64,000 bases of DNA from Phycisphaerae bacterium (GTDB taxonomy: Bacteria > Planctomycetota > Phycisphaerae > UBA1845 > Fen-1342). Under the pieces are notes generated by a model that saw only the letters and a list, made by a program, of their open reading frames with translations, ran no database searches and was not told the DNA's origin. Within the stretch, counting starts at the first letter, position 1; every line of letters starts with the position of its first letter. The stretch is from positions 192,001 through 256,000 of the forward strand of contig CAXXWX010000003.1 in NCBI GenBank assembly GCA_963675745.2, read 5' to 3'. Positions 1-46,639 of this stretch are shown piece after piece. A program made the position numbers and the translations under genes.

Positions 1-162
1 ATGCTGCTGGGGATTGAGAATGCCCGCACGGGGCTAATCTGGGAATTATTCATGTCAGACCGGAACGTGCAGCGCTCCGTTCAGCGGCTGCGCCTCGGGG
101 GAAGTAGCGTGTGTTATCGGTCGGTGGGCGGCGGCCACGGTCTAATCGTAGTTTGCAATTGA
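1..162 (+). CDS. 3' end of a GH144/glucoamylase-like (DUF3131-type) protein, partial (probably starts before the window)
   Basis: Frame 1 reads MLLGIENARTGLIWELFMSDRNVQ..., matching the C-terminal IENxRxGLIWxLFM motif of GH144-like beta-1,2-glucanases; TGA at 160-162. Confidence 0.7.
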   Translation: MLLGIENARTGLIWELFMSDRNVQRSVQRLRLGGSSVCYRSVGGGHGLIVVCN

Positions 163-203
163 CGTTCCGCAACGCGTGGATTACAATCATGAAAACGCTT
201 TCA
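159..203 (+). promoter_or_regulatory. sigma70-type promoter with LacI-family operator
   Basis: TTGACG (159-164), 17-nt spacer, TACAAT (182-187), then near-palindrome TGAAAACGCTTTCA (190-203). Confidence 0.8.
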
Positions 204-266
204 ACCGACATCGTCCCGACCTAAGCCGTCCTTGCGCGGCCCCTTGCACAATCAGGATTTCGCGGT

Positions 267-2690
267 ATGAGTAGCATCGTGAGGGCGTCACGTGAATCGG
301 ATGACCGTCTGGCTCGCCGCGCGGTTCGGAACCCGTATGGCGGATTCTCCATTGAGGGCAACGAGTTCCACATCACCGATTTCCGCACGCCACGTCCCTG
401 GGTCAACATCATTGCCAACCCGCGCTTCGGACTGGCGGTAAGTCAGACCGGCAGCGGTTTCAGTTGGGTGGACAATGCCCAACTCGCGGCAATCACGCGC
501 TGGGAGCAGGATCTCGTCCGTGACAACTCCGGCAAGTTTCTATACGTCCGCGACACAAAAACGGGCGAGGTCTGGTCGCTGTCGCCAGCCCCCACATGGC
601 CGCGCTACGACGAGTACACGTGCCGGCACGGTATGGGTTACACAACCTTTGAGACGCGGTACGCTGACATTCGGGCCACATGGACCCTGTTCTGTCACGC
701 CAGCGAGCCGGTGGAGTTCTGGCGGCTGACGCTCGAAAATCACAGCGGCAGACCGCGGCGACTCGAGCTATGCGCATACCAGGAGTGGTGCTGCGGTGTC
801 GCACCCTCGCCGCGACGGGAATTCCACAAGCTGTTCCTGGAGACCGAGTTCGACGCCGCGCGCGGGGCAATCTTCGCATGCAACCACATGTGGGAGGTCC
901 CGACCGAGCACCATGGCCATTGGAACACGGGCTTTCCGTACGTCAGCGCGCTAGCATGCACCGACGCGGTGCTCTCCGCGACCGGCGACAAAGGGGCGTT
1001 TCTGGGGCGCAATGGCGACGCGCGCTCGCCGGAGGCGCTCGCGCAGGATCTGTGGCGGCCCAAGTTCGGACGCCACGAAGATGCGGTGGCGGCGCTGCGC
1101 CTGGAGGTCGAATTGCGGCGCGACGAACGGCATGAGCTGGGATTCGTGTTGGCAGTTGGCGCCTCGCGCGCGGACGTCGAGCAAACACTGTCGCGGACGC
1201 GCGACGTGGCCGTGCTCGATCGGTCGCTGGAGGATGTGCGGGTTCAGTGGCAGGCGCGTTTGGCCCACCATCGCGTCGAGCTCCCGGAAGCGTCGCTCAC
1301 CTACCTGACGAACGATTGGCTGCGCTATCAGGCGATCGCGGGTCGCATCTGGGGGCGCTGTGGCTACTACCAGCAGAGCGGCGCGATTGGCTACCGCGAT
1401 CAGTTGCAGGACGCGCAGGTCTGGCTGACCATCGATCCGTCCCACTGCCGCACGCAGATCAACACCCATGCCGCCCACCAGTTCGCCGACGGATCCGTGT
1501 ATCACTGGTGGCACCCACTGTCAGAGCAGGGCTTGGTCACGCGCATGACGGACGATCTGCTCTGGCTGGCGTTCGTGACCGCCAACTACATCCGCGAAAC
1601 TGGCAAACTCGATATTCTGTATGACGAGACGCCCTTCCTCGACGACAAGACGCCGAGTTCGCTGCTCGAACACGTGCGCCGAGCATTCGCGCGGGCGTTC
1701 CAGCGGACGAGTTCGCGTGGGTTGCCGCACATTGGGGCCGGTGATTGGAACGACGGGCTCAGCGCCGTGGGCCTTCACGAGCGTGGTGAGTCCATCTGGC
1801 TGGGGCATTTTCTTGCGGGCCTGCTGGCCGACTGGGCGGGAATCTACCGGCGCGTCGGTAACGAGCGGGGCGCCGCCGACCTCGACGCGCGCCGGGCGGC
1901 GCTCGTCACCGCACTCAACACGCATGGCTGGGACGGGCAATGGTATTTGCGGGCGACGCTGGATGATGGTTCGACGCTGGGCAGTTCCGAAGGCGAAGCC
2001 GGACGTATCTTTCTGAATGCGCAGACGTGGGCAATCTTGAACGACGTCGCGCCGCCCGATCGCGCCCGGGCCTGCTGGGACGCGGTTTGCCGGCATCTGA
2101 TCAGTGAGGCGGGGGCCCTGCTGCTGGCCCCGGCGTTTGAAGCGCCCGACCGGCGCGTCGGCTACATCACGCGCTATGGCCCGGGGCTGCGCGAGAACGG
2201 CGGCGTCTATACGCATGCGGCGACATGGGCGATAGCGGCGGCGTGCAAGATGCGTGATACACAGCGCGTGGGCGAATTGCTGACCGCGATCAATCCCGCA
2301 CTCAAGGACCCCGAGCGGTACTGGGCTGAGCCGTACGTCCTGCCCGGCAACGTTGACGGGCCGCAGTCGCCGCACCACGGTCGCGCCGGGTGGACCTGGT
2401 ACACCGGTTCGGCGGCGTGGCTACATCGCGTGATCAGTGAGTGGGTGCTGGGTGTGCGGCCGGAATGGGACGGGCTGCGGATCGCGCCGTGTCTTCCGCC
2501 CGGGTGGAAGCATGCCAGCATGCAGCGTCCTTATCGCGGTGCGACGCTCGACATCACGATCGATCGACAGGATGGCGCATCGGCGGACCGCAACGTGTCG
2601 GTGACGCTGGATGGCAAGACGCTGGATGACAACCTCGTACCGGCGGCGAGGTTGATACCGGGGGCGCACACGATCGCGGTGACCTACTAG
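267..2690 (+). CDS. GH94 glycoside phosphorylase (resembles the beta-1,2-oligoglucan phosphorylase domain of NdvB/Cgs)
   Basis: 807 aa; TPRPWVN, GYRDQLQD, GDWNDG catalytic motif, RENGGVYTHAATW, WYTGSAAW; no signal peptide. Confidence 0.9.
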   Translation: MSSIVRASRESDDRLARRAVRNPYGGFSIEGNEFHITDFRTPRPWVNIIANPRFGLAVSQTGSGFSWVDNAQLAAITRWEQDLVRDNSGKFLYVRDTKTGEVWSLSPAPTWPRYDEYTCRHGMGYTTFETRYADIRATWTLFCHASEPVEFWRLTLENHSGRPRRLELCAYQEWCCGVAPSPRREFHKLFLETEFDAARGAIFACNHMWEVPTEHHGHWNTGFPYVSALACTDAVLSATGDKGAFLGRNGDARSPEALAQDLWRPKFGRHEDAVAALRLEVELRRDERHELGFVLAVGASRADVEQTLSRTRDVAVLDRSLEDVRVQWQARLAHHRVELPEASLTYLTNDWLRYQAIAGRIWGRCGYYQQSGAIGYRDQLQDAQVWLTIDPSHCRTQINTHAAHQFADGSVYHWWHPLSEQGLVTRMTDDLLWLAFVTANYIRETGKLDILYDETPFLDDKTPSSLLEHVRRAFARAFQRTSSRGLPHIGAGDWNDGLSAVGLHERGESIWLGHFLAGLLADWAGIYRRVGNERGAADLDARRAALVTALNTHGWDGQWYLRATLDDGSTLGSSEGEAGRIFLNAQTWAILNDVAPPDRARACWDAVCRHLISEAGALLLAPAFEAPDRRVGYITRYGPGLRENGGVYTHAATWAIAAACKMRDTQRVGELLTAINPALKDPERYWAEPYVLPGNVDGPQSPHHGRAGWTWYTGSAAWLHRVISEWVLGVRPEWDGLRIAPCLPPGWKHASMQRPYRGATLDITIDRQDGASADRNVSVTLDGKTLDDNLVPAARLIPGAHTIAVTY

Positions 2691-2867: not shown

Positions 2868-4709
2868 ATGATTTCCCTTCGTAGTCGACTGGCGTCTCTG
2901 ACCATCGTCTCACTCATGGTTGCCGTGGGATCGCGTGGAGGCGCCACACAGTGGCCGGTCGTGCAGGCGGAAGATGAGGAATATCTGCGTGGCGTGGCGG
3001 TGGACACTTGGGCGTGTATCGCGCACTTTGTCGAACCGACCACGGGATTGCCATTCGACAGCAGCAAGCGCGCTGAGCACAGCTCGGTCTCGAATCTCGG
3101 CTATTACGCGGCAAGTTGCGCCGCGGCGGCGGAGATGGAGCTCATGTCGCGTGAGGAGGCCACGCGGCGCGTCCGGCGCGTACTCGATGGATATCGCCGC
3201 TTCCAGCACTGGAACGGGTTCTCGCAGTCATGGAACAACGTCCACACGCTTAAGCCGGCACCACATGACACGATGATCTCGCTGTTGGACTCGGCGAACA
3301 TGGTGGCCGGCTTCGTGGTCGCGGGGCAGCTTCTGCCGGATGTGCGTGCGGATGTTGGTCAGGTTCTCAGTGCGATGGACTGGAAGCCCTTTCACGATGC
3401 GGCGGACGGTCGGCTGTTCGGCGGGTATGACATGGCGCGGGGGCGGATCGATCGCGGCTGGCACATCGGAGACTACGCCGGCGACGGGCGCTTGGCGGCG
3501 TTCTGGGCGATCGCGGTGGGCGCCGCGCCGCCCGGGTCATGGGAGAAGCTCGGGCGCGAGACCGAAACGCATTTTGGACTGGAGATCTACAAGCCGGCGT
3601 GGTTGGGTGGTGGGCTGTTCATGCAGGTGCAGGATGGTCTGTTCCTGGATGAGCGTTGCACGCCGGCGGGTCGCTCCGCAGCCGATTTCGCGTATGTACA
3701 AATGCTGTTTGCGCGGCAGCAGAAGTTGCCCGCGTGGGGTTGGTCAGCGTGCTGCGCGCCGGATGGCGAGTATCTTGGGTGGTGTGGGTTGAAGGTGTCC
3801 GTGGTCACGCCGCACGCGGCGGGGATGGCGGCGAACTTCTATCCGCACAAGGCCGCCGAGTGTTTGCGCGAGTTGGAGAAGTGGGGCGCGCGAACGCCGT
3901 TTGAGGAGCACGGCAGGCAGCTCAAGCTCGGCTTTCGCGATTCGATCGACCTCGACAGCGGTGTCGTGTGTGATCGCTACCTGCCACCGCTGGATCAGGC
4001 AATGATGTTCCTCGCGCTGGCCAACGCGCTCGAGGATCGCGTTGTGCAGCGGGCGTTCATGTCGCATCCGGTGGTTCGCACGGGCTGCACGCGTATCGCC
4101 GAGTATTCGAAACAGGTGGATGACGCGTGGCTAGCGGAGCTTCAGCGGCGCGATATTAAGCCGCTGCGTGTTCCCGACGCAGGCGGGCGCGGCGGCCCGG
4201 CGCGCGTGGTCATCGATGACTTTGAGCGGGCCGAGGCCACGACTAACCTGCTTGGTGCGGCGAACAGCGTCTGGACGCGCGACGCTGACGATGACACGGT
4301 GACAATCGGGATGCGGCACGAGACTCTCGAGCAGGGTGGCAAACGCTCGGGCTGTCTGCGTGTTGATTACGACGTGGAGTCGCCGAACCCGGCGTACGGC
4401 GGCGTGACGCTGAGTCTCGGGCATGCGAACGGCTCCGGATGCAATCTGCTGACGCTGCGGGCACGCGGGTTGCCGGATCGGACAAAGGTCGAACTGCATG
4501 GGCGTGGCGGATCGGGGGCGGTCCGCGTGCGTGTGAAGGATGCGGGGCAATGGACGGACATCGAGCTGCGCTACCGTGACTTCGGCATGATCACAGACTG
4601 GTCAGATCTCGATCGACTCGTCATCGTGTTCGAGGACAACGTGTCGAAGCCAAAGGTCGGCACCGTCTGGCTCGACGATATTGAGTTGATGCGTGGTGAA
4701 TCGAAGTGA
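2868..4709 (+). CDS. Secreted GH144/GH189-related (glucoamylase-like) glycosidase with C-terminal CBM11/CIA30-like domain
   Basis: Signal-like N-terminus from ATG 2868; TGLPFD, SSVSNLGYY, ISLLDSAN, WGWSA, GFRDSID, LDQAMMFLALAN motifs; C-terminal IDDFE...WLDDIEL beta-sandwich. Confidence 0.7.
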   Translation: MISLRSRLASLTIVSLMVAVGSRGGATQWPVVQAEDEEYLRGVAVDTWACIAHFVEPTTGLPFDSSKRAEHSSVSNLGYYAASCAAAAEMELMSREEATRRVRRVLDGYRRFQHWNGFSQSWNNVHTLKPAPHDTMISLLDSANMVAGFVVAGQLLPDVRADVGQVLSAMDWKPFHDAADGRLFGGYDMARGRIDRGWHIGDYAGDGRLAAFWAIAVGAAPPGSWEKLGRETETHFGLEIYKPAWLGGGLFMQVQDGLFLDERCTPAGRSAADFAYVQMLFARQQKLPAWGWSACCAPDGEYLGWCGLKVSVVTPHAAGMAANFYPHKAAECLRELEKWGARTPFEEHGRQLKLGFRDSIDLDSGVVCDRYLPPLDQAMMFLALANALEDRVVQRAFMSHPVVRTGCTRIAEYSKQVDDAWLAELQRRDIKPLRVPDAGGRGGPARVVIDDFERAEATTNLLGAANSVWTRDADDDTVTIGMRHETLEQGGKRSGCLRVDYDVESPNPAYGGVTLSLGHANGSGCNLLTLRARGLPDRTKVELHGRGGSGAVRVRVKDAGQWTDIELRYRDFGMITDWSDLDRLVIVFEDNVSKPKVGTVWLDDIELMRGESK

Positions 4710-4829: not shown

Positions 4830-5678
4830 CTACCCTTTCAAGCCCGTTGTCGAGATGCCACGGATGAAAGTACGCTGGGCGAAAAGGAACAGGATCACGA
4901 CGGGCAGGATGATGAGCGTTGCGGCCGCCATGAGTTGATTCCAGGGTGTGTCGCCGGCTCTGCTCTGGAGGAATTGCAGACCCAGCGCCAGCGTGAACTG
5001 CTCCTGGTGCGAGAGGTAGATCAGCGGGCCGACGAGGTCGTTCCAGACGGCGAGGCAGTGGAACAGGGCGACGACCGCCAGCGCGGGGCGCGAGAGCGGC
5101 AGGATGATCAACCAGAAGCAGCCCCAGCGTGAACAGCCGTCGAGCATCGCCGATTCCTCGAGGTCCTTCGGGATGCCCATGAAGAATTGCCGTAGGAGAA
5201 AGATGTTGAACGCGGCGCCGAACCACGCCGGCACCCAGAGCGGCAGAAACGTCCCGACCCAGCCGAGCTTCTGAAAGATTATGTACTGCGGCACCATGAT
5301 GACGGGGAAGGGGATCATCATCGTCGCGAGGCATATGCCGAACATCAGGTTGCGGCCGCGGAACTGAATGCGCGCGAAACCATAGGCGGCGATGGCGCTG
5401 GCGAGCACCATGCCGACGAGGCTGAGGGCCGCGATGATGAGCGTGTTGCGGGCGTAAAGCGCGAAGTCGAAGCTGTCCGAGCGCACCACCTGCTGGTATG
5501 CCAGCAGTTGCGGATTCTCGGGGATGATATTGGGGTGGCGCAGTTCGTCCGGCGGCTTGATACTGACGCTGAACATCCAGACCAGTGGAAGCACGAACAG
5601 GCCGGCGACGATGCACAGCAGTGCGTAAACCACCAGCCGGCTGCGCAACTTGCGATAACGTGTCTGCCTCGTAGGCAA
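4830..5678 (-). CDS. Carbohydrate ABC transporter permease (MalG-like)
   Basis: Multiple TM segments, EESAMLDG EAA loop, WNDLVGPLIY. Confidence 0.93.
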   Translation of the reverse strand: MPTRQTRYRKLRSRLVVYALLCIVAGLFVLPLVWMFSVSIKPPDELRHPNIIPENPQLLAYQQVVRSDSFDFALYARNTLIIAALSLVGMVLASAIAAYGFARIQFRGRNLMFGICLATMMIPFPVIMVPQYIIFQKLGWVGTFLPLWVPAWFGAAFNIFLLRQFFMGIPKDLEESAMLDGCSRWGCFWLIILPLSRPALAVVALFHCLAVWNDLVGPLIYLSHQEQFTLALGLQFLQSRAGDTPWNQLMAAATLIILPVVILFLFAQRTFIRGISTTGLKG

Positions 5679-5681
5679 AAT

Positions 5682-6656
5682 CTATGCTCCGCGGTAGTGA
5701 ACCGCTCGCCGGCTGACGAGGAACACCAGCCCGGTCAACCCGACGATGATCAGCAGTTGAATCCACGCCATCGCGCTCGCATAGCCCATCCTCAGATAGC
5801 GGAACGCGTTGTCGAACAGGTACATCGTGTAGAAGTACGTCGAGTCGTTCGGGCCGGAGCCCGTGCGCCACATCACGTACGGCAGCGCGAAGATCTGCCA
5901 TGTACCGATGATGCCGACCACCACGTTGAAGAGGATCACGGGGCTGAGGCCGGGCAGGGTCACGTGCCGGAAACCTTGCCAGCGCGAGGCGCCGTCGAGT
6001 TCGGCGGCCTCGTAGAGCGTCTCCGGGATTTCCTGCAAGCCGGCGAGATAGATCACGACGGGCGACCCGAGCAACCACATGCTGATGATGACCAGCGCGA
6101 GCATGGCCCAGCGCGGCTGACTGAGCCAGCCGGGGCCCTCGGCGAGATCCTGGCCCAGGCTGGCGATGGGCTCCGTAAGTTCGCTCTTGCCCGTGGCGTC
6201 GTGCAGGGCGCTTGTGACGGGCTCCACGAGCTGTCCGAGGGGCCGGATCGCCTGGTTCACCAGGCCGGCCTCGGGGCTGAGCATCCACATCCACATCACT
6301 CCGACGGCCACCAGCGGCACGATCGTCGGCAGGAAGATACAAGCCCGGAAAACGGCCTGGCCGCGTGCTTCCTGGTTGAGCAGCACCGCGAGCAGGACGG
6401 CGACCATCGTCCCGAGCGGGATCGCGATGGCAGCGAAGAGCAGCGTATTGCGAATCACCGCATGGAACTTGGCATCCTGCATCAGATTGCTGTAGTTCTC
6501 GCCGCCGATGAAGACCGGCGATTCGAGCAGTGGATAGTCGCAGAAGCTGATGTAGAGCGAGAGTCCCATCGGTAGCGCCAGGAACAGCAGGAAGCCCAGC
6601 CACCAGGGGGCCGTCCACAACAGACCGCTGAGCCAGGCTGGCCAGGATTGCCTCAC
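5682..6656 (-). CDS. Carbohydrate ABC transporter permease (MalF-like)
   Basis: YLAGLQEIPETLYEAAELDGA motif; GTG start overlaps the stop of the upstream binding-protein gene. Confidence 0.93.
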   Translation of the reverse strand: MRQSWPAWLSGLLWTAPWWLGFLLFLALPMGLSLYISFCDYPLLESPVFIGGENYSNLMQDAKFHAVIRNTLLFAAIAIPLGTMVAVLLAVLLNQEARGQAVFRACIFLPTIVPLVAVGVMWMWMLSPEAGLVNQAIRPLGQLVEPVTSALHDATGKSELTEPIASLGQDLAEGPGWLSQPRWAMLALVIISMWLLGSPVVIYLAGLQEIPETLYEAAELDGASRWQGFRHVTLPGLSPVILFNVVVGIIGTWQIFALPYVMWRTGSGPNDSTYFYTMYLFDNAFRYLRMGYASAMAWIQLLIIVGLTGLVFLVSRRAVHYRGA

Positions 6657-10438: not shown

Positions 10439-10452
10439 TGAAAACGCTTGCA
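10439..10452. promoter_or_regulatory. LacI-family operator in a divergent promoter region
   Basis: TGAAAACGCTTGCA, 13/14 identical to the operator at 190-203. Confidence 0.7.
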
Positions 10453-35146: not shown

Positions 35147-35866
35147 TTAGCGACGGCGCAACAGCAACAGCCCGATGCCGAACAGAGCAATGCTCGCCGG
35201 CTCCGGCACGAAGTTGATGTTGTCGTAGATCATGCCGCTCTGATCGTAGTTGGTTGCTACGCTCGAGAAGCCGATTTGCAGAATCTGGCCATCCAGCGCG
35301 GCGTCGATCGGGATCGAGATTGAGTCCGAGCCCCAGGTGGTTGGCAGCTCGTGCGTATCGACAGTCAGGAAGTTCGTCATCGCCCAACCGTTGGCTGGAT
35401 CCAGCGTCTTAATGAACGCCAGCGCGGTCGTGGGGGGCACCAGATCGCCGTGCTTGACATCGAAGCTGAACGTCCAAATCGAGCCCACGTCAGCCGTACC
35501 AACGGTGAACTCCTGGTACACGTTGGCTTCGATCAGATTGCCGTTGGCATGGTCGCCGTTGTTGTAGTCACTGTAGACCACCAACTGCTGGGCGCCCTGG
35601 TCCAGACCACCCTCGCCGGCGGCGATGGAACAAAAAGCTGCGCCGCCGTTGGGAGCCGGGAAGGAACCATAACCGTACAGGTAGTTCCACGCCGGGTCGA
35701 AGACGTTACCGTATACCAGCCAGCCGTCGTTTGCCAGCGCGTCCGGGTCCGCCTGGACCAGACCCTCGAAATCCTGCGAGTATGCCGGCAGGTCCGCCAG
35801 GGCAACGCCGCTTGTGCACAGCAGAAGCGTCGTGGCTATCCCGCCAATCAGAATACGTTGCAACAT
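35147..35866 (-). CDS. PEP-CTERM sorting domain surface protein
   Basis: AGGAGG RBS, signal peptide, VPEPASIALFGIGLLLLRRR. Confidence 0.9.
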   Translation of the reverse strand: MLQRILIGGIATTLLLCTSGVALADLPAYSQDFEGLVQADPDALANDGWLVYGNVFDPAWNYLYGYGSFPAPNGGAAFCSIAAGEGGLDQGAQQLVVYSDYNNGDHANGNLIEANVYQEFTVGTADVGSIWTFSFDVKHGDLVPPTTALAFIKTLDPANGWAMTNFLTVDTHELPTTWGSDSISIPIDAALDGQILQIGFSSVATNYDQSGMIYDNINFVPEPASIALFGIGLLLLRRR

Positions 35867-37391: not shown

Positions 37392-37451
37392 GGAAACAGT
37401 TCTTGAAACAGTTGCAGGGTTTAGTGTACGATGTCGATCGCGGCAGGTCAA
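37392..37451 (-). promoter_or_regulatory. Promoter of lacI-2 with tandem operators
   Basis: Minus-strand TTGACC (37451-46), 17 nt, TACACT (37428-23); boxes TGAAACAGTTGCA (37404-16) and GGAAACAGTTCTT (37392-404). Confidence 0.72.
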
Positions 37452-37662: not shown

Positions 37663-40071
37663 ATGGGAAGTGCTGCACTGCATCTGCTTACGCTCGGGCT
37701 GTTGGCTGCGACTGCGGGTGCGGCTGTGTCTCCGCCCGACGACCAGCGAGCGTTGTCGTTTGTGATGGACGGCGCGTGGCGTGGCGACGGCATCTGTTAT
37801 GGCCCCCACCGCGATGGTCAGCGGCCCGGTGGCCCTGGACCGTCATCGGAACAGCTACGCGAAGACCTGCGCATCATGCGGCCGCATTGGCGTATCTTTC
37901 GGCTCTACGCCGTCGGCGATGAGACTGAGACAGTCCTGCGCACAATCCGCGACGAGCACCTCGGCATGAAGGTCTTGCTCGGCGCCTGGATCGATCCTGA
38001 ACAGCCCGGCGACAGCGAACATCCCGATGCGCAAACGCAGGCCCGTAATCGCCGACAGCTCGAACTGGCCGGGCAGCTCGCAAACCGCTATCCCGAAGTC
38101 GTGCTCGGCATCAGCGTGGGGAATGAAACACAGGTCTCCTGGTCATCCCATCGTGTCCGCCCGGAAGTACTGGTCGCCTACGTTCGCCAAGTCCGGGCGA
38201 CGACAAGCGTGCCGATCACCGTCGCCGACGACTACACTTTCTGGCTCGAACCGCGGGCGGCGCAATTGGCACGCGAAGTCGACTTCATTCACGCGCACAT
38301 TTACGCCATGTGGCGCGGCAAGACCCTGGACGAAGCGCTCCCGTTCACACAGATGCAGTACGCCGCCCTGACGACGCATTATCCCAAACACCCGATCATC
38401 ATCGGTGAGCTCGGCTGGGCGACACAGATGCACAGCGCCGGCGACCAGGCCAAGTACATCAAAGGTCGCGCGGGCATGGCAGAGCAGACGGCGTTCTATG
38501 ATGCGTTTCTGACTTGGGCGCGGCGTAAGCGCGTAGCGCACTTCTGGTTTGAGGCTTTTGACGAGAATTGGAAGGGTGGCCCGCACCCCAATGAGGTGGA
38601 GAAGCACTGGGGTGTGTTCAACTCGGACCGCTCACCCAAGGCCGCCATGCAGCCGATGGCCGTCTGGGCGCGCCGCGTGCGAGCGCTGGATTGGATCTGT
38701 TACTCCCCTACCAACGCCGACCCGGATGCGGGTCAAATGCCGACGATCGAGTCGATCCGCGCTGACCTCGCGGCGTTGCGGACCGCCGGATTCAGCGGCT
38801 TGATCACGTATGGCTCAGACGGGGTCCGCGGGCGCGACCTGCCCAAGCTGGCGGTGGATGCCGGCTTCAGTGGCCTGATCATGGGCGTGTGGGACCCGAC
38901 AAGCGCCGAAGAGCTTGCCGCCGCCCGGAACGCGGCGCAGCTTGACGAGGTATACGGCTATTGCGTCGGAAACGAGGGGCTGCGCGGCCGGTACAAGATG
39001 GATGCGCTGCGCAACGCGATCGCCGAGCTGAAGCGCGCTACCGGCAAACCCGTTACCACAACGGAGGAAATCGACGACTACGCCGACCCCGCGTTGCGCG
39101 CGGTTGGTGACTGGGTGTTTCCCAACGCGCATCCGGTTTTCCACGGCCGTGTTGATCCCGATCGCGCGGCGGATTGGACGGTCGGCGCGTATGATGAACA
39201 GGTGCGCCTGTGCAAGAACTGGGTCTGGTTCAAGGAAGTGGGGTTGCCGACCGGCGGCGACGAGAACGGCATCCTGTCCCCCGCCGCGCAGGTCAAGTAC
39301 TACACGGCTCTGGCCAAGACCCCGGTCATCTTCGCGTATTTCGAGGCGTTCGATCAGCCCTGGAAGGACTGGCGGCCATTTGAAACCCAGTGGGGGCTCT
39401 TTACCGCCGAGCGGGAGCCCAAGCTCCTGGCCAGGCAGTTGATCAAGTCAGGCTTTCCCGAGCGCGGCGTTCACGTGCAGTCCCGGTCGGCGGCGGCCAC
39501 CGAAACCGACACGCCACGCCGCGCGACCCCGTTCTGGGTCTATCGCGACGCGGAGTCTCCCGAGAACCACTTCGAGCCGAGCGGCCTCGACGGTGACACC
39601 GGCGACGTGATGATAGATGCCCATGTCAGCGACCGGCCTCACTCCGGAACAACCTGTTTGAAGCTCGTCTATACGGCCAAGGGCACCGGGCCGCACAAGT
39701 GCGCGTACGACCCGCCCTGTCGGTGGGCGGGGATTCGCTGGCTACACCCGGCGAAGAACTGGGGCGACAAGGAAGAGCACGCCGGCGCCGGATTCGATCT
39801 GCGCGGTTATCATCGACTGACATTCTGGGCCCGCGCCGACAAGCCGACACGGGCACAATTCATGGTCGGTGGTCTCGATACGCCATACGGCGACTCGCTC
39901 GCATACCCGCACGCCCTGGTTGCCGAGCTCGAAACAACGTGGCGTCAGTTTGAAATCGACTTGAAAGCCGGCGATCTAAGCCACATTATCGCCGGCTTCG
40001 GATGGAGCACGAATTGGGATTTGAACCCCGACGGTTGCTGCATTTACCTGGATGACATCCGCTTTGAGTAA
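37663..40071 (+). CDS. Secreted tandem GH17 beta-1,3-glucanase with C-terminal CBM11-like domain (start approximate)
   Basis: Two GH17 domains: ICYGP/VGNE/GELGWAT/FEAFDENWK and ICYSP/VGNE/KEVGLPT/FEAFDQPWK; tail LTFWAR...IYLDDIRFE. Confidence 0.85.
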   Translation: MGSAALHLLTLGLLAATAGAAVSPPDDQRALSFVMDGAWRGDGICYGPHRDGQRPGGPGPSSEQLREDLRIMRPHWRIFRLYAVGDETETVLRTIRDEHLGMKVLLGAWIDPEQPGDSEHPDAQTQARNRRQLELAGQLANRYPEVVLGISVGNETQVSWSSHRVRPEVLVAYVRQVRATTSVPITVADDYTFWLEPRAAQLAREVDFIHAHIYAMWRGKTLDEALPFTQMQYAALTTHYPKHPIIIGELGWATQMHSAGDQAKYIKGRAGMAEQTAFYDAFLTWARRKRVAHFWFEAFDENWKGGPHPNEVEKHWGVFNSDRSPKAAMQPMAVWARRVRALDWICYSPTNADPDAGQMPTIESIRADLAALRTAGFSGLITYGSDGVRGRDLPKLAVDAGFSGLIMGVWDPTSAEELAAARNAAQLDEVYGYCVGNEGLRGRYKMDALRNAIAELKRATGKPVTTTEEIDDYADPALRAVGDWVFPNAHPVFHGRVDPDRAADWTVGAYDEQVRLCKNWVWFKEVGLPTGGDENGILSPAAQVKYYTALAKTPVIFAYFEAFDQPWKDWRPFETQWGLFTAEREPKLLARQLIKSGFPERGVHVQSRSAAATETDTPRRATPFWVYRDAESPENHFEPSGLDGDTGDVMIDAHVSDRPHSGTTCLKLVYTAKGTGPHKCAYDPPCRWAGIRWLHPAKNWGDKEEHAGAGFDLRGYHRLTFWARADKPTRAQFMVGGLDTPYGDSLAYPHALVAELETTWRQFEIDLKAGDLSHIIAGFGWSTNWDLNPDGCCIYLDDIRFE

Positions 40072-40077
40072 GCTCTG

Positions 40078-41562
40078 ATGCGGCAGTTCAAGAAAGCCCT
40101 GCAAACCGCCATCGGCAGCGCCATGTTGCTGGCCGCATTGGGGCTCGTCGCATTCGGGCCGCGCTCGACGCGCCCCGACGCCGGCGGCCGTACGGTCGTC
40201 CGCTACTGGGAGAAGTGGACCGACTTTGAAGGCGAGGCGATGCGCCGGCTGGTCGGCGTATTTAATGATACGGTCGGGCGCGAGCGCGGCATCTTCGTTG
40301 ACTACCAGACCACGACGCAGATTGATTTGAAAGCGCTGGTTGCCGTATCCGGCGGTGATCCGCCTGACCTGGTGGGTCTCTGGCAACACAACGTCACCAG
40401 CTTTGCGTCCAGAGGCGGGTTGCTGGCACTCGACGAGCGCGCCGCCGCCGCGGGCATCACGGCGGACATGCTCATCCCGATCTACTTCGAGCCCTGCCAC
40501 TATCACGGCCGCTTGTACGGCCTGCCGCTCACGCCGTGGTCGATCGCCCTTTACTACAACAAAGACCTCTTCGCCGAATTCGGCGAGCAGTTGCGTGCCG
40601 CCGGCTATGACCCCAATCGCCCGCCGCGTACGCTGGATGAGCTCGCCGGCTATTCGCGCGTGATCCACCGCCGCGACAAAAACGGCGACATCACGCTGAT
40701 GGGTTATCTGCCCGGCGCCCCGGCCCCATCCATCGCCTGGTACTGCCACACCTGGCCGATCTGGTTCGGCGGGTCGTTCTATGACGCCGATGCGCAGACA
40801 GTGCCGGTCGCAAGCGATATCTCCATCCGCGCGCACGAGTGGGTACGTGATTTCGAGCAGCAGTTTGGTGTGGCCGACGTACAGAAATTCGAATCGGGCC
40901 TCTCGAACTTCAATTCGCCGGACAATCCGTTCATGAGCGGGCGGCTGGCAATGATGCGCCAAGGACCGTGGTTTGCGAACATGATCCGCCAGTATGCACC
41001 CAATCTGAACTGGGCGGCGGCGCCGTTCCCCACGCACGACGGGAGCGAGATCAGCTTCTGTGGCCAGGACGTGCTCGTCATCCCCGATGGGGCACACCAC
41101 CCCGACGAGGCCTGGGCGTTCATCGAATGGCTGTTGACCGGCCCGCCCGTCAACGTCCCATCGGGCCAGGCCACGCCACAGCGGGGCTACGAGTATTACG
41201 AGGCAAGAACGCCCGACGGCATCGAGCGCCGCCCGATGCCGCCGCTGCGGCCGATCGAGTGGATTTGCTGGATTCACTACAAAAACAGCCCCCTGGTGAA
41301 CCCGTCGCCCGAGTTCATCGAGACACACCCCAGTCCGGCGCTGGCGATCCACGAGCGCTTGGCGCGCCTGCCCGGTGCGCAAACCGAGCCGGGGCTACCC
41401 AACTGGATACAGCTCAGTTCGGAGCTGATCCAGACGTACGCCGACATCTGGGCAACCGGAGCGCCGGTGCGGCCGCGGCTGGAAAGCTGTCAGCAACGCA
41501 TTGACACCCTCATCGAGCTCGCCCGCCGACAACAGGCGCGCCTCGGGGAGCAATACCCATGA
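40078..41562 (+). CDS. Sugar ABC transporter substrate-binding protein
   Basis: YWEKW, SGGDPPD, LYYNKDLF, LAMMRQGPW. Confidence 0.9.
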   Translation: MRQFKKALQTAIGSAMLLAALGLVAFGPRSTRPDAGGRTVVRYWEKWTDFEGEAMRRLVGVFNDTVGRERGIFVDYQTTTQIDLKALVAVSGGDPPDLVGLWQHNVTSFASRGGLLALDERAAAAGITADMLIPIYFEPCHYHGRLYGLPLTPWSIALYYNKDLFAEFGEQLRAAGYDPNRPPRTLDELAGYSRVIHRRDKNGDITLMGYLPGAPAPSIAWYCHTWPIWFGGSFYDADAQTVPVASDISIRAHEWVRDFEQQFGVADVQKFESGLSNFNSPDNPFMSGRLAMMRQGPWFANMIRQYAPNLNWAAAPFPTHDGSEISFCGQDVLVIPDGAHHPDEAWAFIEWLLTGPPVNVPSGQATPQRGYEYYEARTPDGIERRPMPPLRPIEWICWIHYKNSPLVNPSPEFIETHPSPALAIHERLARLPGAQTEPGLPNWIQLSSELIQTYADIWATGAPVRPRLESCQQRIDTLIELARRQQARLGEQYP

Positions 41563-42488
41563 GTGATCCGCGCGGTGCCACTGCAACCAATCGGCGTGAC
41601 ACGCTCACGGGTGTGCTGTGGATCAGCCCCTGGATCATCGGCTTCTCGGTCTTCATTCTGCTGCCCGTGATCATGTCGGCGTATCTGAGCTTCTGCACGT
41701 TTGACGGCGTACGCCGGCCGATCTTCACCGGTCTCGAAAACCTCTCCACGCTGATCGCTGATCCGCGCTTCTGGAAAGTCCTGAAGAACACGGCGATTTA
41801 CGCCGCCGTCTCCCTGCCGGTCGGAACGGTGCTGGCGATCACCATCGCCATTCTGCTCAACCAGCGCGTCCCGGGCCGCGCCCTGTGGCGCGCGATGATC
41901 TTTGTGCCGACGCTCGTCCCACTGGTGGCCTCCGCCATGATCTGGATGTGGATGTTCAATGCCAGCCACGGCCTGATCAACGCCCTGTTTCGCCTGCTCA
42001 ACTATCTACCGTTTGTCTCCGGCGTCGATGGACCAAGCTGGTTGACCAGCCAGTACTGGACGATGCCGTCGATGATCCTGCTGAGCTTCTGGGCGATCGG
42101 CCATCCGGTGGTGATCTACCTGGCCGGTTTGCAGGACGTTCCGCGGAGTCTCTATGAAGCGGCTCACGTGGACGGTGCAGGCCCGGGTCAACGTCTCTGG
42201 CACGTCACCCTGCCGATGATCTCGCCGACCATCTTTTTCAACGTGGTGATGGGCATCATCTATGTCTGGCAGGTGTTCGCCATACCACAGATCATGCTCG
42301 AAGGTGGCGGTCCCGGCCGGAATGCTTATTTCTACACCATGTACCTCTATGACGTGGCGTTTCGCGATTTGCGTTTTGGTTACGCCTGCCTGCTGAGTTG
42401 GGTGCAACTGCTGATCATCCTGGGCCTCACGGCGCTGGCGTTTCGGCTCAGCAAGAACCTGGTTCACTATCGGGGGGCAGCGCGATGA
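41559..42488 (+). CDS. Carbohydrate ABC transporter permease (MalF-like)
   Basis: YLAGLQDVPRSLYEAAHVDGA; ATGA overlap with upstream gene. Confidence 0.93.
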   Translation: MSDPRGATATNRRDTLTGVLWISPWIIGFSVFILLPVIMSAYLSFCTFDGVRRPIFTGLENLSTLIADPRFWKVLKNTAIYAAVSLPVGTVLAITIAILLNQRVPGRALWRAMIFVPTLVPLVASAMIWMWMFNASHGLINALFRLLNYLPFVSGVDGPSWLTSQYWTMPSMILLSFWAIGHPVVIYLAGLQDVPRSLYEAAHVDGAGPGQRLWHVTLPMISPTIFFNVVMGIIYVWQVFAIPQIMLEGGGPGRNAYFYTMYLYDVAFRDLRFGYACLLSWVQLLIILGLTALAFRLSKNLVHYRGAAR

Positions 42489-43393
42489 CGGCCGCAACAA
42501 TCAAGCACATCGTCGCCACGGGTCTCGTTGCGATCGTTGCCGTGGCGTTCGTCACTCCGTTGGTGTGGATGATCGCCACCAGTCTCAAGCCACAAGAGGA
42601 GATCAGCACGGCGGGGCTCTCGCTGTTGCCCGACGAGCCGTCCAAGCTGCCACGCTACGCATACGAGAACTATTATGCCGGCCGCCCCAAAGCCATCGAC
42701 AAGGACGGTGTCGAGCGCGTCGGTTACGAGGGCGTGCTCACCAGTGAAAACGTCCACTTCCTGCTGTACGCCCGCAACACGTTGATCGTCGCGCTGCTCA
42801 GCGTCGGCGGCATGGTGCTTTCGAGCGCCATCTGTGCCTACGGGTTCGCGAAAGTTCAGTGGCGCGGCCGAAACGTCGCCTTCGCGATCATGCTCGCGAC
42901 GATGATGATCCCGTTCCCGGCGGTCATGATCCCCACGTACTTCATCTTCAAGAGCCTGGGGCTGATTGGCACGCTCGCGCCGCTGTGGCTGCCCGCGTGC
43001 TTCGGCGGCGCGTTCAATGTGTTCCTGTTGCGCCAGTTCTTCATGCAGATCCCCAACGAGCTGTCCGAAGCCGCCCGCCTTGACGGGCTGGGACACTGGG
43101 GCATTTTCTGGCGCATCGTCATCCCGCTCTCACGTCCGGCCCTGGCGGTTGTGGCACTGTTCCACTCGATATACGTCTGGAACGACTTCATCGGTCCGCT
43201 GATCTACCTCAACCATCAGGACCTGTTTACACTGGCACTGGGCTTGCAGTTCTACGAGTCCCAACATGGCGGCACACCGTGGAATCTGCTCATGGCCGCC
43301 TGCACCCTCGTCACCGCCCCACTGCTGATGCTGTTTGTCATGACTCAGCGGACGTTCATCGAGGGTATCGCCACCACGGGCACGAAGGAGTGA
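42485..43393 (+). CDS. Carbohydrate ABC transporter permease (MalG-like)
   Basis: ELSEAARLDG, WNDFIGPLIY; ATGA overlap at 42485. Confidence 0.93.
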   Translation: MTAATIKHIVATGLVAIVAVAFVTPLVWMIATSLKPQEEISTAGLSLLPDEPSKLPRYAYENYYAGRPKAIDKDGVERVGYEGVLTSENVHFLLYARNTLIVALLSVGGMVLSSAICAYGFAKVQWRGRNVAFAIMLATMMIPFPAVMIPTYFIFKSLGLIGTLAPLWLPACFGGAFNVFLLRQFFMQIPNELSEAARLDGLGHWGIFWRIVIPLSRPALAVVALFHSIYVWNDFIGPLIYLNHQDLFTLALGLQFYESQHGGTPWNLLMAACTLVTAPLLMLFVMTQRTFIEGIATTGTKE

Positions 43394-43519
43394 CTCGGCC
43401 CGGAATTGAGCCGCGCCGAGCACTGCCCGGCGCGACCACGACGCAGCTACAATGATGAAAGGGATTATTTGGTGTCCACAACTTTCGACTTGATACAACG
43501 CGCGAGCGGCGATCTGAGC

Positions 43520-46500
43520 ATGCCCGATTATCAACTCGAGCAGGACGGCAGCTACCGCATCAACCAGTATGACTCAGCCGCGGCGTTTTGCAGCTTCTTG
43601 CCCGGGATTGGTGGGCCGGCCGGCGTCCCCCTGTGGTGCATGTACGTCAACCGCGCCCAGGCGATTGTGTCTTTCGGCGTACACAACAAGGACAACGCCA
43701 TCTGCGAGTACCTGCCGGCAACCTGGGCCTATCAGCTTGTCGGCATTCAGGGCTTTCGCACCTTCTGCAAGATTGACGGCAACTACTATGAGCCATTCCG
43801 CGCGCCGGCCGATGGACGATCGGGCGCAGCGCGCGCGATGCACATTGAGCCCGATCATCTGACGCTGCGCGAAACAGCCGCACCGCACGGCCTGTCGTTC
43901 ACCGTGCGCTACTTCGCCCCCGTGAACCAGCCATTGGGCACGCTTTGTCGACGATTGACCATCACGAACACCGGCGACGAAGCCAAATCGGTGGAGGCGC
44001 TCGATGGCCTGCCGCTGATCTTGCCGGCGGGATTCACCGACCATGGCATCAAGACGATGCGGCACATCCACGAGGCATATGCCGCCGTGCGACTCACTTG
44101 CGGTCACGTCCCGTTCTTCGCCTCGAAGGTCCACGCCCACGATGAAGCCGAGGTGACCGAGGTGCGGCACGGCAACTTCTACGCCGCGTGGACTGTCCGC
44201 GATGGCGGCCTGGTACCGGTTGAGCCGTACGTCGACCCGCACGTGATCTTCGGCGGTGGGCATGACCTGATCTCACCACGGCGTTTCATTGCCGAGGATG
44301 CACTGTCGCGCGAGCAGCAGATCTGGGAGAACCGACTTCCGTGTGCCCTGGCGCCGATAAGCGCCACACTTGAACCCGGCGCCTCGATCGAGCTGGTTGC
44401 CCTGGTCGGCACCGCCCCCAGCGAGAAGCGCCTGGAGGCTTTCCTCCCACGCTATCAGCGGATCGAAGACTTGGACGCCGCGCGAGAAGAGAGCCGGCGA
44501 CTGTTTGAGAGCCTTGTCACTCCCGCATTCACGGTCTCGCGGTATCCGACGTTCGATGCCTATGCGCGGCAGAATTACCTCGACAATGTACTGCGCGGCG
44601 GGCGCCCCGAGATGCTGCCGTCGCGCTCCGGGCCGACGCCGCTGTATCTCTATGCCCGGCGGCACGGTGACCTCGAGCGTGATTACAACTACTTCGTGCT
44701 CCCGCCGACGCCCCTCTCGAGCGGCGCCGGAAACTATCGCGATGTCTGCCAGAATCGACGTAGCGACGTCTGGTTCTATCCGGACCCCGACGCCACCTGC
44801 ATTCGCATGTTCGTCGAATTGCTCCAGCCTGATGGCTATAACCCGCTGTCGGTCGAAGGCTATCGCTGGCGCCTCGGGCGCGACGTCGATCCGCTGCGGC
44901 ACTGCCCGGCGACCGACACCGCCGCGCGCGACGCATTCCGCACGCTGCTCGACGACACGTTTGTGCCCGGCGAACTGCTTCATTGGGCGCAGCGTTACGC
45001 AGTGCCGCTCGACCAGCCGCGGGCCTGGCTCGAACGCGTGCTCGGCGACTGCGAGCGCAGCCTGGTGGCCAACGGTCACGCCGGCGGCTACTGGATCGAC
45101 CATTGGACATACATCATCGACCTGCTCGAAGCCTTTGCGGCCGTATATCCCGACCGGGTCGAACAAATGCTCACGGGCGCGGCGGACGTTGGCTGGTTCG
45201 ACGAGGGCGCGAGCGTGGCATCCCGGCACGAGAAGTACGTTCGCCGGGGTGATCAGCCGCTTCAGCTCAATGCCGTTCAAACCGGCCGCCAGGCCACCGC
45301 TGCGTTGCCGCCCACGACAATCCTCGGCAAGCTCTGCGCGCTGGTCGCGATCAAGGCTATCAGCTTTGACTACGCCGGTCGCGGCATCGAGATGGAAGCC
45401 GGTCGCCCCGGATGGAACGACTCGCTGAACGGCCTGCCAGGCCTGTTCGGGTCCTCCACTTGTGAGGCCGCCGAACTGACACGCCTCGCGGCCTGGCTGC
45501 GGGCGGCGCTGCCGAGCGCGCCGAATACGGAGTTACCGGTCGAAATCGCCGACCTGATCGTCGACGTTGTGGCAGACCTCAAGGCGCCAACCTATGACTG
45601 GGATCGGGCCGCGGGATTGCGCGAGCGATGTCGCGCGCGGCTGTACGGGGCCGGCGGCGGCGAGACGCGCGTGGTCAGCGGCACGCTGCTCACCGATTTA
45701 CTGGCCGGCGCTGAAAGCCGCGGACGCCGGGCGACCAAGAACTCGATCGATAGCGCGCGGGGGCTGATCCACACCTACTATGTCGGCAATCCGCAAAGCC
45801 ACCCCGACGAGACCATCGGCGGATTCGCGTCCGAGCCGTTGCCGCTCTATCTCGAGGGGCAGGTGCATTGGCTGCGCATCCAGCGCAGCGCGGACGACGC
45901 GCGCGCGATCTACCAGGCCGTCCGCAACAGCCCGCTCTTTGACCAGGCCCTGCGGATGTACAAGCTCAATGAGTGTCTCGATGGCCAACCTCCCGAGATC
46001 GGCCGGGCACGGACGTTTACGCGCGGCTGGTTCGAGAATGAGTCAATCTGGCTGCACATGAGCTATAAGTTCCTGCTCGAGTTGCTGCGAGCCGGCCTGC
46101 ACGCTGAGTTCTTTGAAGACATCCGCACGATGTTCGTACCATTCATGAACCCGGAGACGTATGGGCGCAGCACGCTCGAGAACTCGTCGTTCATCGGCTC
46201 GTCGGCGAATCCCGACCCCCACACGCACGGGCGCGGCTTCATCGCCAGACTCAGCGGTTCGACCGCCGAGTTCATTCACATGTGGTTGCTAATGACAGTC
46301 GGCCAGCGGCCCTTCCACATTGAAAACGACACGCTCCACTTTCAGCTCGAGCCCGTTCTTCCTGGCGAGTGGTTCACCACGCAACCAGAGACGATTTCGT
46401 GGCAGGGTGAGAAGGTGGAAATCCCAGTAAACGCCTTCGCCTGCGCCCTGCTCGGAAACACGTTGCTCGTCTACCACAACCCCACCCGGGCAAACACCTT

Positions 46501-46639
46501 CGGCCCCAACGCCGTGCGGCCGGTGGATTACGTGCTCGACGGCTGTTCCTGCGAGCGACAAGCCGCGGGTCTGGCGGGCGAGCTTGCCGAACGCGTTCGC
46601 GCCCGGGCATTCACGCGCATCGACGTACACCTGGCCTGA
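43520..46639 (+). CDS. GH161-like beta-1,3-glucan phosphorylase
   Basis: SFLPGIGG..GVPLW..YVNRAQ, RHGDLERDYNYF, GNYRDVCQNRR, GWNDSLNGLPG, GWFENESIWLHMSYK, RLSGSTAEF; cytoplasmic. Confidence 0.8.
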   Translation: MPDYQLEQDGSYRINQYDSAAAFCSFLPGIGGPAGVPLWCMYVNRAQAIVSFGVHNKDNAICEYLPATWAYQLVGIQGFRTFCKIDGNYYEPFRAPADGRSGAARAMHIEPDHLTLRETAAPHGLSFTVRYFAPVNQPLGTLCRRLTITNTGDEAKSVEALDGLPLILPAGFTDHGIKTMRHIHEAYAAVRLTCGHVPFFASKVHAHDEAEVTEVRHGNFYAAWTVRDGGLVPVEPYVDPHVIFGGGHDLISPRRFIAEDALSREQQIWENRLPCALAPISATLEPGASIELVALVGTAPSEKRLEAFLPRYQRIEDLDAAREESRRLFESLVTPAFTVSRYPTFDAYARQNYLDNVLRGGRPEMLPSRSGPTPLYLYARRHGDLERDYNYFVLPPTPLSSGAGNYRDVCQNRRSDVWFYPDPDATCIRMFVELLQPDGYNPLSVEGYRWRLGRDVDPLRHCPATDTAARDAFRTLLDDTFVPGELLHWAQRYAVPLDQPRAWLERVLGDCERSLVANGHAGGYWIDHWTYIIDLLEAFAAVYPDRVEQMLTGAADVGWFDEGASVASRHEKYVRRGDQPLQLNAVQTGRQATAALPPTTILGKLCALVAIKAISFDYAGRGIEMEAGRPGWNDSLNGLPGLFGSSTCEAAELTRLAAWLRAALPSAPNTELPVEIADLIVDVVADLKAPTYDWDRAAGLRERCRARLYGAGGGETRVVSGTLLTDLLAGAESRGRRATKNSIDSARGLIHTYYVGNPQSHPDETIGGFASEPLPLYLEGQVHWLRIQRSADDARAIYQAVRNSPLFDQALRMYKLNECLDGQPPEIGRARTFTRGWFENESIWLHMSYKFLLELLRAGLHAEFFEDIRTMFVPFMNPETYGRSTLENSSFIGSSANPDPHTHGRGFIARLSGSTAEFIHMWLLMTVGQRPFHIENDTLHFQLEPVLPGEWFTTQPETISWQGEKVEIPVNAFACALLGNTLLVYHNPTRANTFGPNAVRPVDYVLDGCSCERQAAGLAGELAERVRARAFTRIDVHLA

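Follow-up and report, generated by a model that had tools for sequence, protein, structure and literature searches.

A conserved, operator-linked prepilin gene in each of two beta-glucan loci of a Phycisphaerae bacterium, and its possible role in glucan capture

Introduction

By what route does a planctomycete without a SusC/SusD pair take up a glucan, and do pilins have a part in it? The question is raised by a 64,000-nucleotide window of DNA from a Phycisphaerae bacterium (assembly GCA_963675745.2, contig CAXXWX010000003.1, positions 192,001 to 256,000; here C3:192001-256000). C-prefixed coordinates refer to contigs of the genome and all others to the window. The source genome is a metagenome-assembled genome (MAG) of 5.2 Mb in 28 contigs, 91% complete with 6% contamination. 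A sequence-only reading of positions 1..46639 described one beta-glucan utilization system built from DUF1559 pilin-like, PEP-CTERM and dockerin-tailed proteins, with one pilin per glucan type.

Polysaccharide utilisation loci of the SusC/SusD type in Bacteroidota combine a TonB-dependent transporter and a SusD partner in a regulated glycan cluster. Planctomycetes are major polysaccharide degraders that bring sugars through the outer membrane without SusC/D. SusC/SusD loci are named as the model in PMC11131199, and a 2025 review states that the players in planctomycete polysaccharide uptake are not known (PMC12673574). In the 'fishing rod' proposal (Boedeker 2017, as reviewed in PMC12078418 and PMC12673574), pilin-like proteins bind polysaccharides and pull them into the periplasm.

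The reading put forward here, as a possibility somewhat short of an even chance, is that a dedicated minor pilin recruits an adjacent protein with carbohydrate-binding modules (CBMs) to a type IV filament for glucan capture.

Results

Operators and neighbours of the two pilin genes

The window holds two probably separately regulated loci, assigned by homology and known family activities to beta-1,2-glucan (locus 1, which starts 4.8 kb to the left of the window and ends at 14224) and beta-1,3-glucan (locus 2, 21109-46639), with 6.6 kb of unrelated DNA between them. The secreted glucanases, two ATP-binding cassette (ABC) importers, two phosphorylases and LacI regulators of the sequence-only reading are all present where it placed them. 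Its single system consists of real genes that belong to two loci, with differing operators and unrelated genes between ~14.3 and 20.9 kb. Gene calling by a self-trained hexamer model gave 3796 genes, whose start positions are approximate. The pilin genes and the features around them are as follows (GH, glycoside hydrolase).

-4819, 190 (190..203) and 10439 (10439..10452): operator 1, each copy before a locus 1 operon
10568..11338, +: PEP1, a PEP-CTERM surface protein with a domain of no assigned function (TIGR02595 above cut-off)
11484..12326, +: pilin 1, a DUF1559-type prepilin with an aromatic-rich head (TIGR02532 above cut-off)
12434..14224, +: CBM protein, a secreted three-domain CBM4-like protein with a dockerin-like tail
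23340 and 23396 (23340..23408): operator 2, two copies
25306: operator 2 with one mismatch, before lacI2-pilin 2, after a sigma70-like promoter at 25273-25301 (25273..25318, +)
25363..26478, +: LacI2, ending 13 bp before pilin 2
26492..27631, +: pilin 2, a DUF1559-type prepilin (TIGR02532 above cut-off)
27908..31249, +: giant, a secreted 1113-aa protein with nested CBM-like domains and a dockerin-like tail
37404..37416: operator 2, between lacI3 and the GH17-ABC-GH161 operon

Operator 1 is a 14-bp LacI-type palindrome, TGAAAACGCTTTCA, with exactly three occurrences in the genome, all in locus 1. A two-mismatch copy lies before lacI1. The operator that the sequence-only reading saw before 10568 is confirmed; it lies in the divergent region before the PEP1-pilin 1-CBM cassette, which points away from the ABC importer 1 side of the locus. 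Operator 2 is a 13-bp palindrome with four exact matches in the genome, three of them intergenic in locus 2. The promoter scan gave 1 site against a shuffle mean of 1.9, no better than shuffles and no evidence by itself.

Both operator patterns come from the source genome and were searched for in its relatives, one mismatch being permitted. The comparison covers all 31 fetched pilin 1 loci (29 with downstream DNA), 19 pilin 2 loci (the best 20 of 25 other matches, one locus from the source genome, the five weakest left out) and, as the control, the iscS-linked prepilin pilin 3 (best 20 of 32 matches). Operator 1 lies no more than 3.5 kb upstream of pilin 1 in 31/31 loci, and it is found in 1/19 pilin 2 loci and 0/20 control loci. 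Operator 2 lies upstream in 14/19 pilin 2 loci, 0/31 pilin 1 loci and 0/20 control loci. The background in 316,798 bp of control DNA is no match for operator 1 and five for operator 2. The pilin is probably a member of the regulon and not a bystander, and these operator counts are the strongest evidence of this. Shared operators and conserved clustering together point to a co-regulated cluster of carbohydrate-active enzymes (CAZymes), binders and a transporter.

Pilin 1 has a single-copy ortholog in 30 of 36 genomes of the family and in 1 of 24 genomes of other families (45-85% identity, with up to 40 candidates per genome scored), and its homologues carry the Phycisphaerae label in their sources. 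Of the 29 loci with downstream DNA, 28 have the CBM gene directly 3' of pilin 1, and the 29th ends in a CBM fragment at the contig edge. A beta-1,2-glucan gene of any kind lies within ~10 kb of pilin 1 in 27/31 loci, as compared with 0/20 for the control pilin. Among the 31 loci, the CBM protein occurs in 28, PEP1 in 25, the GH144 clan in 25, GH94 in 8 and GH16 in 1; the giant, GH17 and GH161 are in none. In five loci the CBM protein is without its first domain, and in four of these PEP1 is replaced by a CBM4-like PEP-CTERM protein. The first CBM domain and PEP1 are variable, and the constant core is therefore the pilin with CBM domains 2-3. The consistent linkage to glucan genes anticipated by the sequence-only reading is borne out, in that the orthologues keep both the link to glucan genes and the locus operator.

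Pilin 1 could instead be a passenger or sensor: a periplasmic pilin, anchored in the inner membrane and never in a filament, that acts as a scaffold or signal relay, or a gene whose position is mere inherited order. Most of the genome's DUF1559-type pilins are solitary or stand beside extracytoplasmic function (ECF) sigma or kinase genes, as this would have it, and the control pilin is equally syntenic with iscS (20/20), so synteny alone is no proof of function. However, in six loci without PEP1 in front, operator 1 sits 134-349 bp before pilin 1 itself, and the operator thus stays with the pilin in rearranged cassettes. Pilin 1 copies from one genus take separate positions in a quick tree, which suggests, though it is no formal test of movement, a mobile cassette whose parts stay together. 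In the class III signal, E5 is invariant. A passenger or sensor is very improbable.

Across the 60 relatives, pilin 1 and the binding protein of ABC importer 1 are both present in 29, both absent in 28 and discordant in 3 (agreement 57/60). This co-occurrence and the 31/31 operator link fit a part in utilisation. They argue against a pilin that serves adhesion only, as a sugar-induced tether to glucan-rich particles or cells without a part in envelope transport. Beta-1,2-glucans are mostly soluble, and a tether would add little for them. A role in attachment to glycans is described for MUL2, a type IV-like pilus of Akkermansiaceae (PMC13174399), and secreted endo-enzymes with ABC importers suffice for external digestion, but adhesion alone appears improbable.

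Pilin 2 has looser associations. Among its 19 loci, lacI precedes the pilin in 17, and the giant is present in 15, GH16 in 11, GH17 in 6 and GH161 in 6; GH144, GH94, PEP1 and the CBM protein are in none. The pilin 2 of the window groups (96/93) with two paralogues from the source genome and two relatives. The loci of these paralogues and relatives point to a mannan-like substrate, with genes of the GH5-like, GH130, esterase and symporter kinds. Three more distant members of the clade lie among GH13/GH57 starch genes, among GH3/GH123 and alone. For pilin 1, the rule of a single pilin for each glucan type is obeyed, with beta-1,2-glucan genes in 27/31 loci and the giant, GH17 or GH161 in none; for pilin 2 it is obeyed only loosely. 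The LacI3 orthologue in relatives directly precedes a pilin-2-clade gene, which is not so in the window, and 3 of the 7 LacI genes of the genome directly precede a DUF1559-type pilin. In one of the neighbourhood loci (L060:9475-10521), a lone pilin-2-clade gene among unrelated genes keeps operator 2 ~90 bp upstream.

Predicted structures and the pilin-CBM complex

The sequence-only reading named the cassette pilins as DUF1559/H-X9-DG proteins. Pilin 1 just reaches PF07596/DUF1559 (23.9 bits against a cut-off of 23.3, at residues 77-115 of the long open reading frame, in the N-terminal part only). Pilin 2 has no match to PF07596, as compared with 2/20 members of its clade that do. Neither pilin is among the 11 genome matches to TIGR04294 (H-X9-DG) at E 0.1, and the two carry H-X9-DA and H-X10-DG variants. 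Both have a class III signal, G/A-FxxxE, with F1 and E5 invariant, followed by a hydrophobic helix. They have a common skeleton (CPS motif, RH...DxH end) and different heads. The pilin 1 model (predicted local distance difference test, pLDDT, 95; 83 sequences) has a 51-residue helix (4-54) and an elaborated head with 19 conserved aromatic residues. With this model, Foldseek gives no match at E 0.001, and the top 19 matches in VIA are type IV pilins, the best being PilA4 (Z 5.0, rmsd 3.0, 118 aligned). As modelled, pilin 1 is a type IV pilin fold.

In the version of the sequence-only reading, the pilin head is itself a lectin that binds glucan, retraction draws the chain through a secretin, and the CBM and PEP-CTERM proteins are independent helpers. 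The conserved, aromatic-rich head and five PilT-family ATPases are consistent with this; a lectin-bearing minor pilin exists in Streptococcus sanguinis (PMC9934059), and the 'fishing rod' hypothesis is in print (PMC12078418). However, the head has no lectin-like grafted module and its best structural matches are plain pilins. Related pilin 2 heads occur in beta-1,3-glucan, mannan-like and starch loci, and the invariant neighbour of pilin 1 is the CBM protein, suggesting that the partner does the binding. A lectin head is distinctly unlikely.

In a three-chain prediction with the CBM protein, PEP1 and the pilin 1 head as partner, the complex scores 0.57 (weak support), and all three controls score 0.00. 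The score is 0.00 when the CBM protein is replaced and PEP1 is kept. At least 53% of contacts are common to the runs, with a partner pLDDT of at least 79. In the calibration of the tool, the mark is reached by 116/157 solved pairs and 2/215 mismatched pairs; 18 of the solved pairs and both mismatches lie at or below 0.60.

Such a contact could also serve export. In that case the pilin would be a cargo-specific type II secretion pseudopilin that recognises the neighbouring CBM protein, and perhaps enzymes of the locus, while in the periplasm and pushes them out of the cell; capture would be by surface proteins alone, with uptake via general porins to the ABC importers. The fixed adjacency, the operator in common and the weak predicted interface are explained equally well, and the genome has several type II secretion-type gene clusters with a secretin and an assembly ATPase. 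A planctomycete raises type II secretion on fucoidan (PMC11685898), and pilin genes of this kind are often flanked by signal-peptide genes (PMC8567305). On the other hand, ~138 proteins of the genome have a dockerin-like tail and only 12 of 29 long pilins have one nearby, so most need no private pilin. The heads also have many conserved aromatics (19 in pilin 1), as is often so in glycan-contact surfaces, although their exposure is putative. Export is an unlikely purpose on this evidence. The capture and export readings differ only in the purpose of the pilin-partner contact, and sequence cannot separate them.

Gene content of the two loci

The remaining features of locus 1 are as follows.

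C3:187219-189432, left of the window: secreted GH144-dockerin gene (PDB 5gzh, E 1e-120)
C3:189603-190619, left of the window: lacI1
1..162, +: 3'-terminal part of a GH144-clan gene whose beta-1,2-glucanase-like product has no signal peptide (5z06, E 7e-36)
267..2690, +: GH94 phosphorylase, likely on beta-1,2-oligoglucans
2868..4709, +: secreted member of the beta-1,2-glucanase clan that ends in a CBM-like domain (weak Glycoamylase/DUF3131; weak 8wy1, E 2.8e-13)
4830..8014, -: ABC importer 1, a membrane-anchored binding protein and two permeases
8158..10149, -: secreted beta-1,2-glucanase-like protein with a TSP3/dockerin-like tail, related to GH194 PgSGL3 (8xuk, E 5e-19)

The family names GH189 for 8wy1 and GH194 for the 8xuk-type PgSGL3 are from PMC12102758. 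Homology to characterised GH144 is full-length for the gene left of the window, and the three other clan members are more distant. The window copy of the CBM protein is without a Pfam match, and 13 of 28 members of its alignment match CBM_4_9. An atlas search with PEP1 gave leads only, unnamed or DUF (DUF6645, 140 shared features). Three genes that are frequent in the beta-1,2 loci of relatives have no counterpart in the locus of the window. A GH1 gene is present in 25/31 loci. A 280-aa protein with a dockerin-like tail and without a Pfam match is in 14 loci and has three paralogues elsewhere in the source genome. A 1050-aa F5/8-domain protein is in 12 loci, and the source genome has none. Just left of locus 1, at C3:180401-185156, there are tandem Rhs/YD-repeat fragments with differing C-termini and probable immunity genes.

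The remaining features of locus 2 are as follows.

21109..23214, -: secreted GH16 with a dockerin-like tail (motif ELDIME)
23705..25177, +: secreted CBM4-like and probable GH16-like protein with a dockerin-like tail (CBM profile E 1e-24; EFDIE motif), without Pfam or PDB match
31507..33009, +: secreted GH16-CBM6-dockerin
33109..35013, -: secreted LamG and clan GH-A barrel (weakly like GH158, GH2 and GH72) with a dockerin-like tail
35147..35866, -: PEP2, a PEP-CTERM protein (TIGR02595 above cut-off)
36292..37356, -: LacI3, without an adjoining pilin
37663..40071, +: secreted GH17-like protein, two barrels and a CBM-like tail
40078..43393, +: ABC importer 2, a binding protein and two permeases
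43520..46639, +: GH161 phosphorylase (PDB 9qqk, residues 12-949, E 1.6e-181), presumably specific for beta-1,3-glucan

Neither ABC cluster contains an ATPase gene; each consists of a binding protein and two permeases. The permease matches were dropped as substrate markers, since they do not tell the two modules apart.

The giant consists of four homologous CBM11-like sandwiches and one CBM4-like domain, nested in one another. Its model consists of beta-sandwiches throughout (pLDDT 82), and its structural matches are of the CBM4/16/22-like and CBM11-like kinds (Z up to 14.5, rmsd 2.9, 149 aligned). By the profile of one module, a hub is split into residues 34-94, 511-557 and 1016-1044. The hub encloses three homologous modules (107-198 + 398-507, 563-766 and 808-979), the first of which is itself split by the CBM4-like domain at 209-395. 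The arrangement is kept in 14 full-length relatives, and there is a paralogue at C23:80605-83871. An atlas search with the giant gave leads only, the best at 0.86.

The DNA between the loci was rejected as part of either one, as 14.3-20.9 kb is present in none of the fetched neighbourhoods.

14283-20896: unrelated insert, with an integrase-like remnant of an element near 14660-14800
16276-17538: anti-sigma-like gene
17995-18900: AraC regulator
19253-20896: HEAT-repeat gene

Just after GH161 lies the control gene of the comparison.

47047-47766: pilin 3, a third DUF1559-type prepilin, overlapping the start of the cysteine desulfurase gene iscS (pair 47047-48917)

The pilin 3-iscS pair is kept in 20/20 orthologous loci (63-71% identity), none of them with glucan genes, and pilin 3 was rejected as a part of the glucan system. 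The pairing suggests a conserved housekeeping role, possibly in sulfur or Fe-S metabolism. Farther right, at 54708-63112, Fur, ferritin, rubredoxin-like and peroxiredoxin genes are followed by an alternative complex III operon, an ordinary arrangement.

Outer membrane and filament machinery

No TonB-dependent transporter or porin is found among the 49 window proteins scanned, in agreement with the sequence-only reading. Elsewhere in the genome, there are one TonB receptor (683 aa) and one OprB porin. The receptor lies beside an ABC-binding-like gene and is convergent with GH2/GH38; the porin gene precedes genes that resemble those of acetate metabolism. No operator match within two mismatches lies upstream of either, and neither matches any neighbourhood locus. 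No TonB-receptor match was found in 21 of 30 family genomes with pilin 1, which are MAGs. Uptake by a co-regulated TonB transporter elsewhere, which would have undone the sequence-only reading, is not borne out; the single receptor is unlinked and without an operator, and it was rejected as the glucan importer. A search for the BBP2 porin gave nothing, but its control was equally silent.

Outside the loci, the genome encodes 5 secretins, 13 T2SSE-family ATPases including the 5 of the PilT family, a PilD-type peptidase and 3 exosortases. PF06750 matched the PilD type, and PF01478 matched the peptidase of a Tad cluster only. No PilM-like gene was seen in the general scan of window proteins, in which MUL2 proteins were not searched for. 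The PEP-CTERM proteins have a signal peptide, a C-terminal PEP motif, a transmembrane helix and a basic tail, and the genome has the exosortases to match. For cohesin, there is one partial match above the cut-off in the genome, and the tail of the GH16-CBM6 protein scores 21.8 with PF00404 against a cut-off of 22.9. Very long reading frames that contain secretin, of 2385 aa with adjoining pieces, lie at C24:57518-68178.

Pilins elsewhere in the genome and the phylum

Of the 43 prepilin matches in the genome, 29 belong to the long solitary type. Among these long pilins, 10/29 have a PEP-CTERM gene no more than two genes away (background 6.1%) and 12/29 a dockerin-tailed gene (background 12.1%); clustering inflates the p values of both. 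Seven pilins are linked to glycan genes: the two in the window, two with starch genes (C3:12594 and C19:230035), one with GH1/GH5 (C26:192692) and two with GH130 on C23. Two more pilins with glycan genes nearby are probably chance neighbours. Seen from the other side the link is sharper: besides the 3 of 7 LacI genes that stand directly before such a pilin, a profile of the CBM4-like domain of the cassette finds 7 genome proteins, all in pilin-bearing glycan loci.

The starch pilin cassettes (C3:7329-16867 and C19:227-236 kb) contain GH13, X25-PEP-CTERM, X25-dockerin and sugar ABC genes. Further cassettes lie at C26:189944-198926 (GH1/GH5) and C23:80-101 kb (GH130/esterase), and the symporter/GH130 region on C23 appears frameshifted. 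Several other long pilins adjoin ECF sigma genes accompanied by Ser/Thr kinase or FecR-like anti-sigma genes, some followed by PEP-CTERM genes.

Discussion

A possible route is as follows. Each beta-glucan locus encodes its own pilin. A LacI repressor likely controls the expression of this pilin together with that of the enzymes, and the pilin is likely a minor subunit of a type IV filament. It is predicted, weakly, to hold the neighbouring secreted, multi-domain sugar-binding protein, and the pair would catch glucan on the surface of the cell. The chain caught in this way would be cleaved by the endo-glucanases with dockerin tails. A secretin or general porin would let the oligosaccharides through the outer membrane, and the ABC importers would take them to the cytoplasm for phosphorolysis by GH94 and GH161. 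A doubtful extension of this capture reading is a modular type IV filament importer that replaces SusC/SusD in Phycisphaerae, with a private minor pilin and docking binder per locus and PilT retraction through a secretin bringing polymer or large fragments into the periplasm.

A number of observations weigh against recruitment of the CBM protein for capture. The complex score of 0.57 is in the range that the tool calls more often wrong than right, and a job of three chains with their own alignments is unlike the tool's calibration. Over 17 loci, the CBM protein follows PEP1 in sequence distance (partial r 0.68) and not pilin 1 (0.24), and in the mirror-tree test pilin-CBM co-variation is not above background. 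The three similar cassettes of the sequence-only reading hold a pilin in two cases, and the third, lacI3-PEP2-GH-A, has none. The pilin 2 clade is not substrate-pure, as far as gene content tells. An OprB porin is present, so oligosaccharides could enter without a pilus. Most of the genome's 29 DUF1559-type pilins are not glycan-linked. The linkage of 7-9/29 pilins is not significant against 2/18 random loci (Fisher p 0.45 and 0.16), in a CAZyme comparison based on two Pfam scans at different E limits, 1e-5 and 1e-9, with 5 neighbours outside the fetched DNA; both glycan loci of the random set are without a pilin.

The distribution in the phylum adds to these. The surveyed loci are kin within one family and are not independent, and the pilin 1 clade was not found in 200 further genomes of the phylum. 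Among 300 phylum genomes, GH144 is in 4 and GH161 in 6. In the GH144 regions of other families, a prepilin or PEP-CTERM motif is found in 0/4. In the GH161 regions, prepilins are found in 3/6, and one of the three has two pilins clustered with PEP2-like and GH16 genes. The heads of these prepilins show no relation to that of pilin 2 or to one another, and one is similar to a pilin of the source genome that is not glycan-linked. Across the phylum, the cassette is thus dispensable for these substrates.

The loci resemble SusC/SusD loci in that there is one regulated cluster per glycan with surface binders, endo-enzymes, an importer and intracellular enzymes. Unlike SusC/SusD loci, they are without a TonB receptor or SusD and have ABC importers and LacI regulators, with a prepilin, PEP-CTERM proteins and dockerin-tailed CBM proteins as surface parts. 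The pilins are similar to the planctomycete N_methyl + SBP_bac_10 proteins (DUF1559, PF07596; TIGR04294), which are expanded, with a prepilin N-terminus, an RH...DGH-like C-terminal motif and scattered genes flanked by signal-peptide genes (PMC8567305). In contrast to those proteins, pilin 1 barely reaches and pilin 2 misses PF07596, and both miss TIGR04294. The accessible text of PMC8567305 gives no function and no glycan-locus or operator link for the family.

The Akkermansiaceae MUL2 is likewise a pilus of the Planctomycetes-Verrucomicrobia-Chlamydiae superphylum tied to glycan use without SusC/D (PMC13174399). It is a single conserved four-gene locus (amuc_1099-1102) with PilM and an archaeal-type pilin, whereas private pilins per locus with machinery elsewhere are found here. 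In Streptococcus sanguinis, the minor pilin pair PilA-PilC gives a type IV filament its glycan specificity (PMC9934059). The PilC lectin is a fused module for host adhesion; here the binder is separate, secreted and without a prepilin signal. Dockerin-like tails on secreted enzymes recall the cohesin-dockerin 'planctosome' assemblies of freshwater Phycisphaerae (PMC6461901). Those were proposed for peptidases, whereas CAZymes and CBM proteins are tailed here, with the one partial cohesin match in the genome. The 'fishing rod' reviews, in their accessible parts, name no genes and give the 'players unknown'; in Phycisphaerae, the present loci give specific, substrate-dedicated, operator-linked genes and a partner.

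The pilin-fishing idea as a hypothesis, the expanded pilin family and the glycan-linked pilus of Akkermansiaceae are already known. The literature search, with subscription papers and supplements outside it, found no paper tying DUF1559-type pilins to glycan loci or operators. The new elements are the operator footprinting over 50 loci with a negative control, a predicted contact between the pilin and the product of its invariant neighbour gene, a restriction of the rule that each glucan has one pilin, and the nesting of CBMs, an architecture that is unusual in itself.

The loci give named genes, two substrates (beta-1,2- and beta-1,3-glucan) and operator sites for reporter or binding assays. 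The pilin 1 head and the CBM protein are a specific pair that is testable in vitro without culturing. If the modular importer were true, the expanded family of DUF1559-type pilins would amount to a set of exchangeable adaptors for different substrates. The two loci suggest pilus-based polysaccharide capture and give the large DUF1559-type family a testable job.

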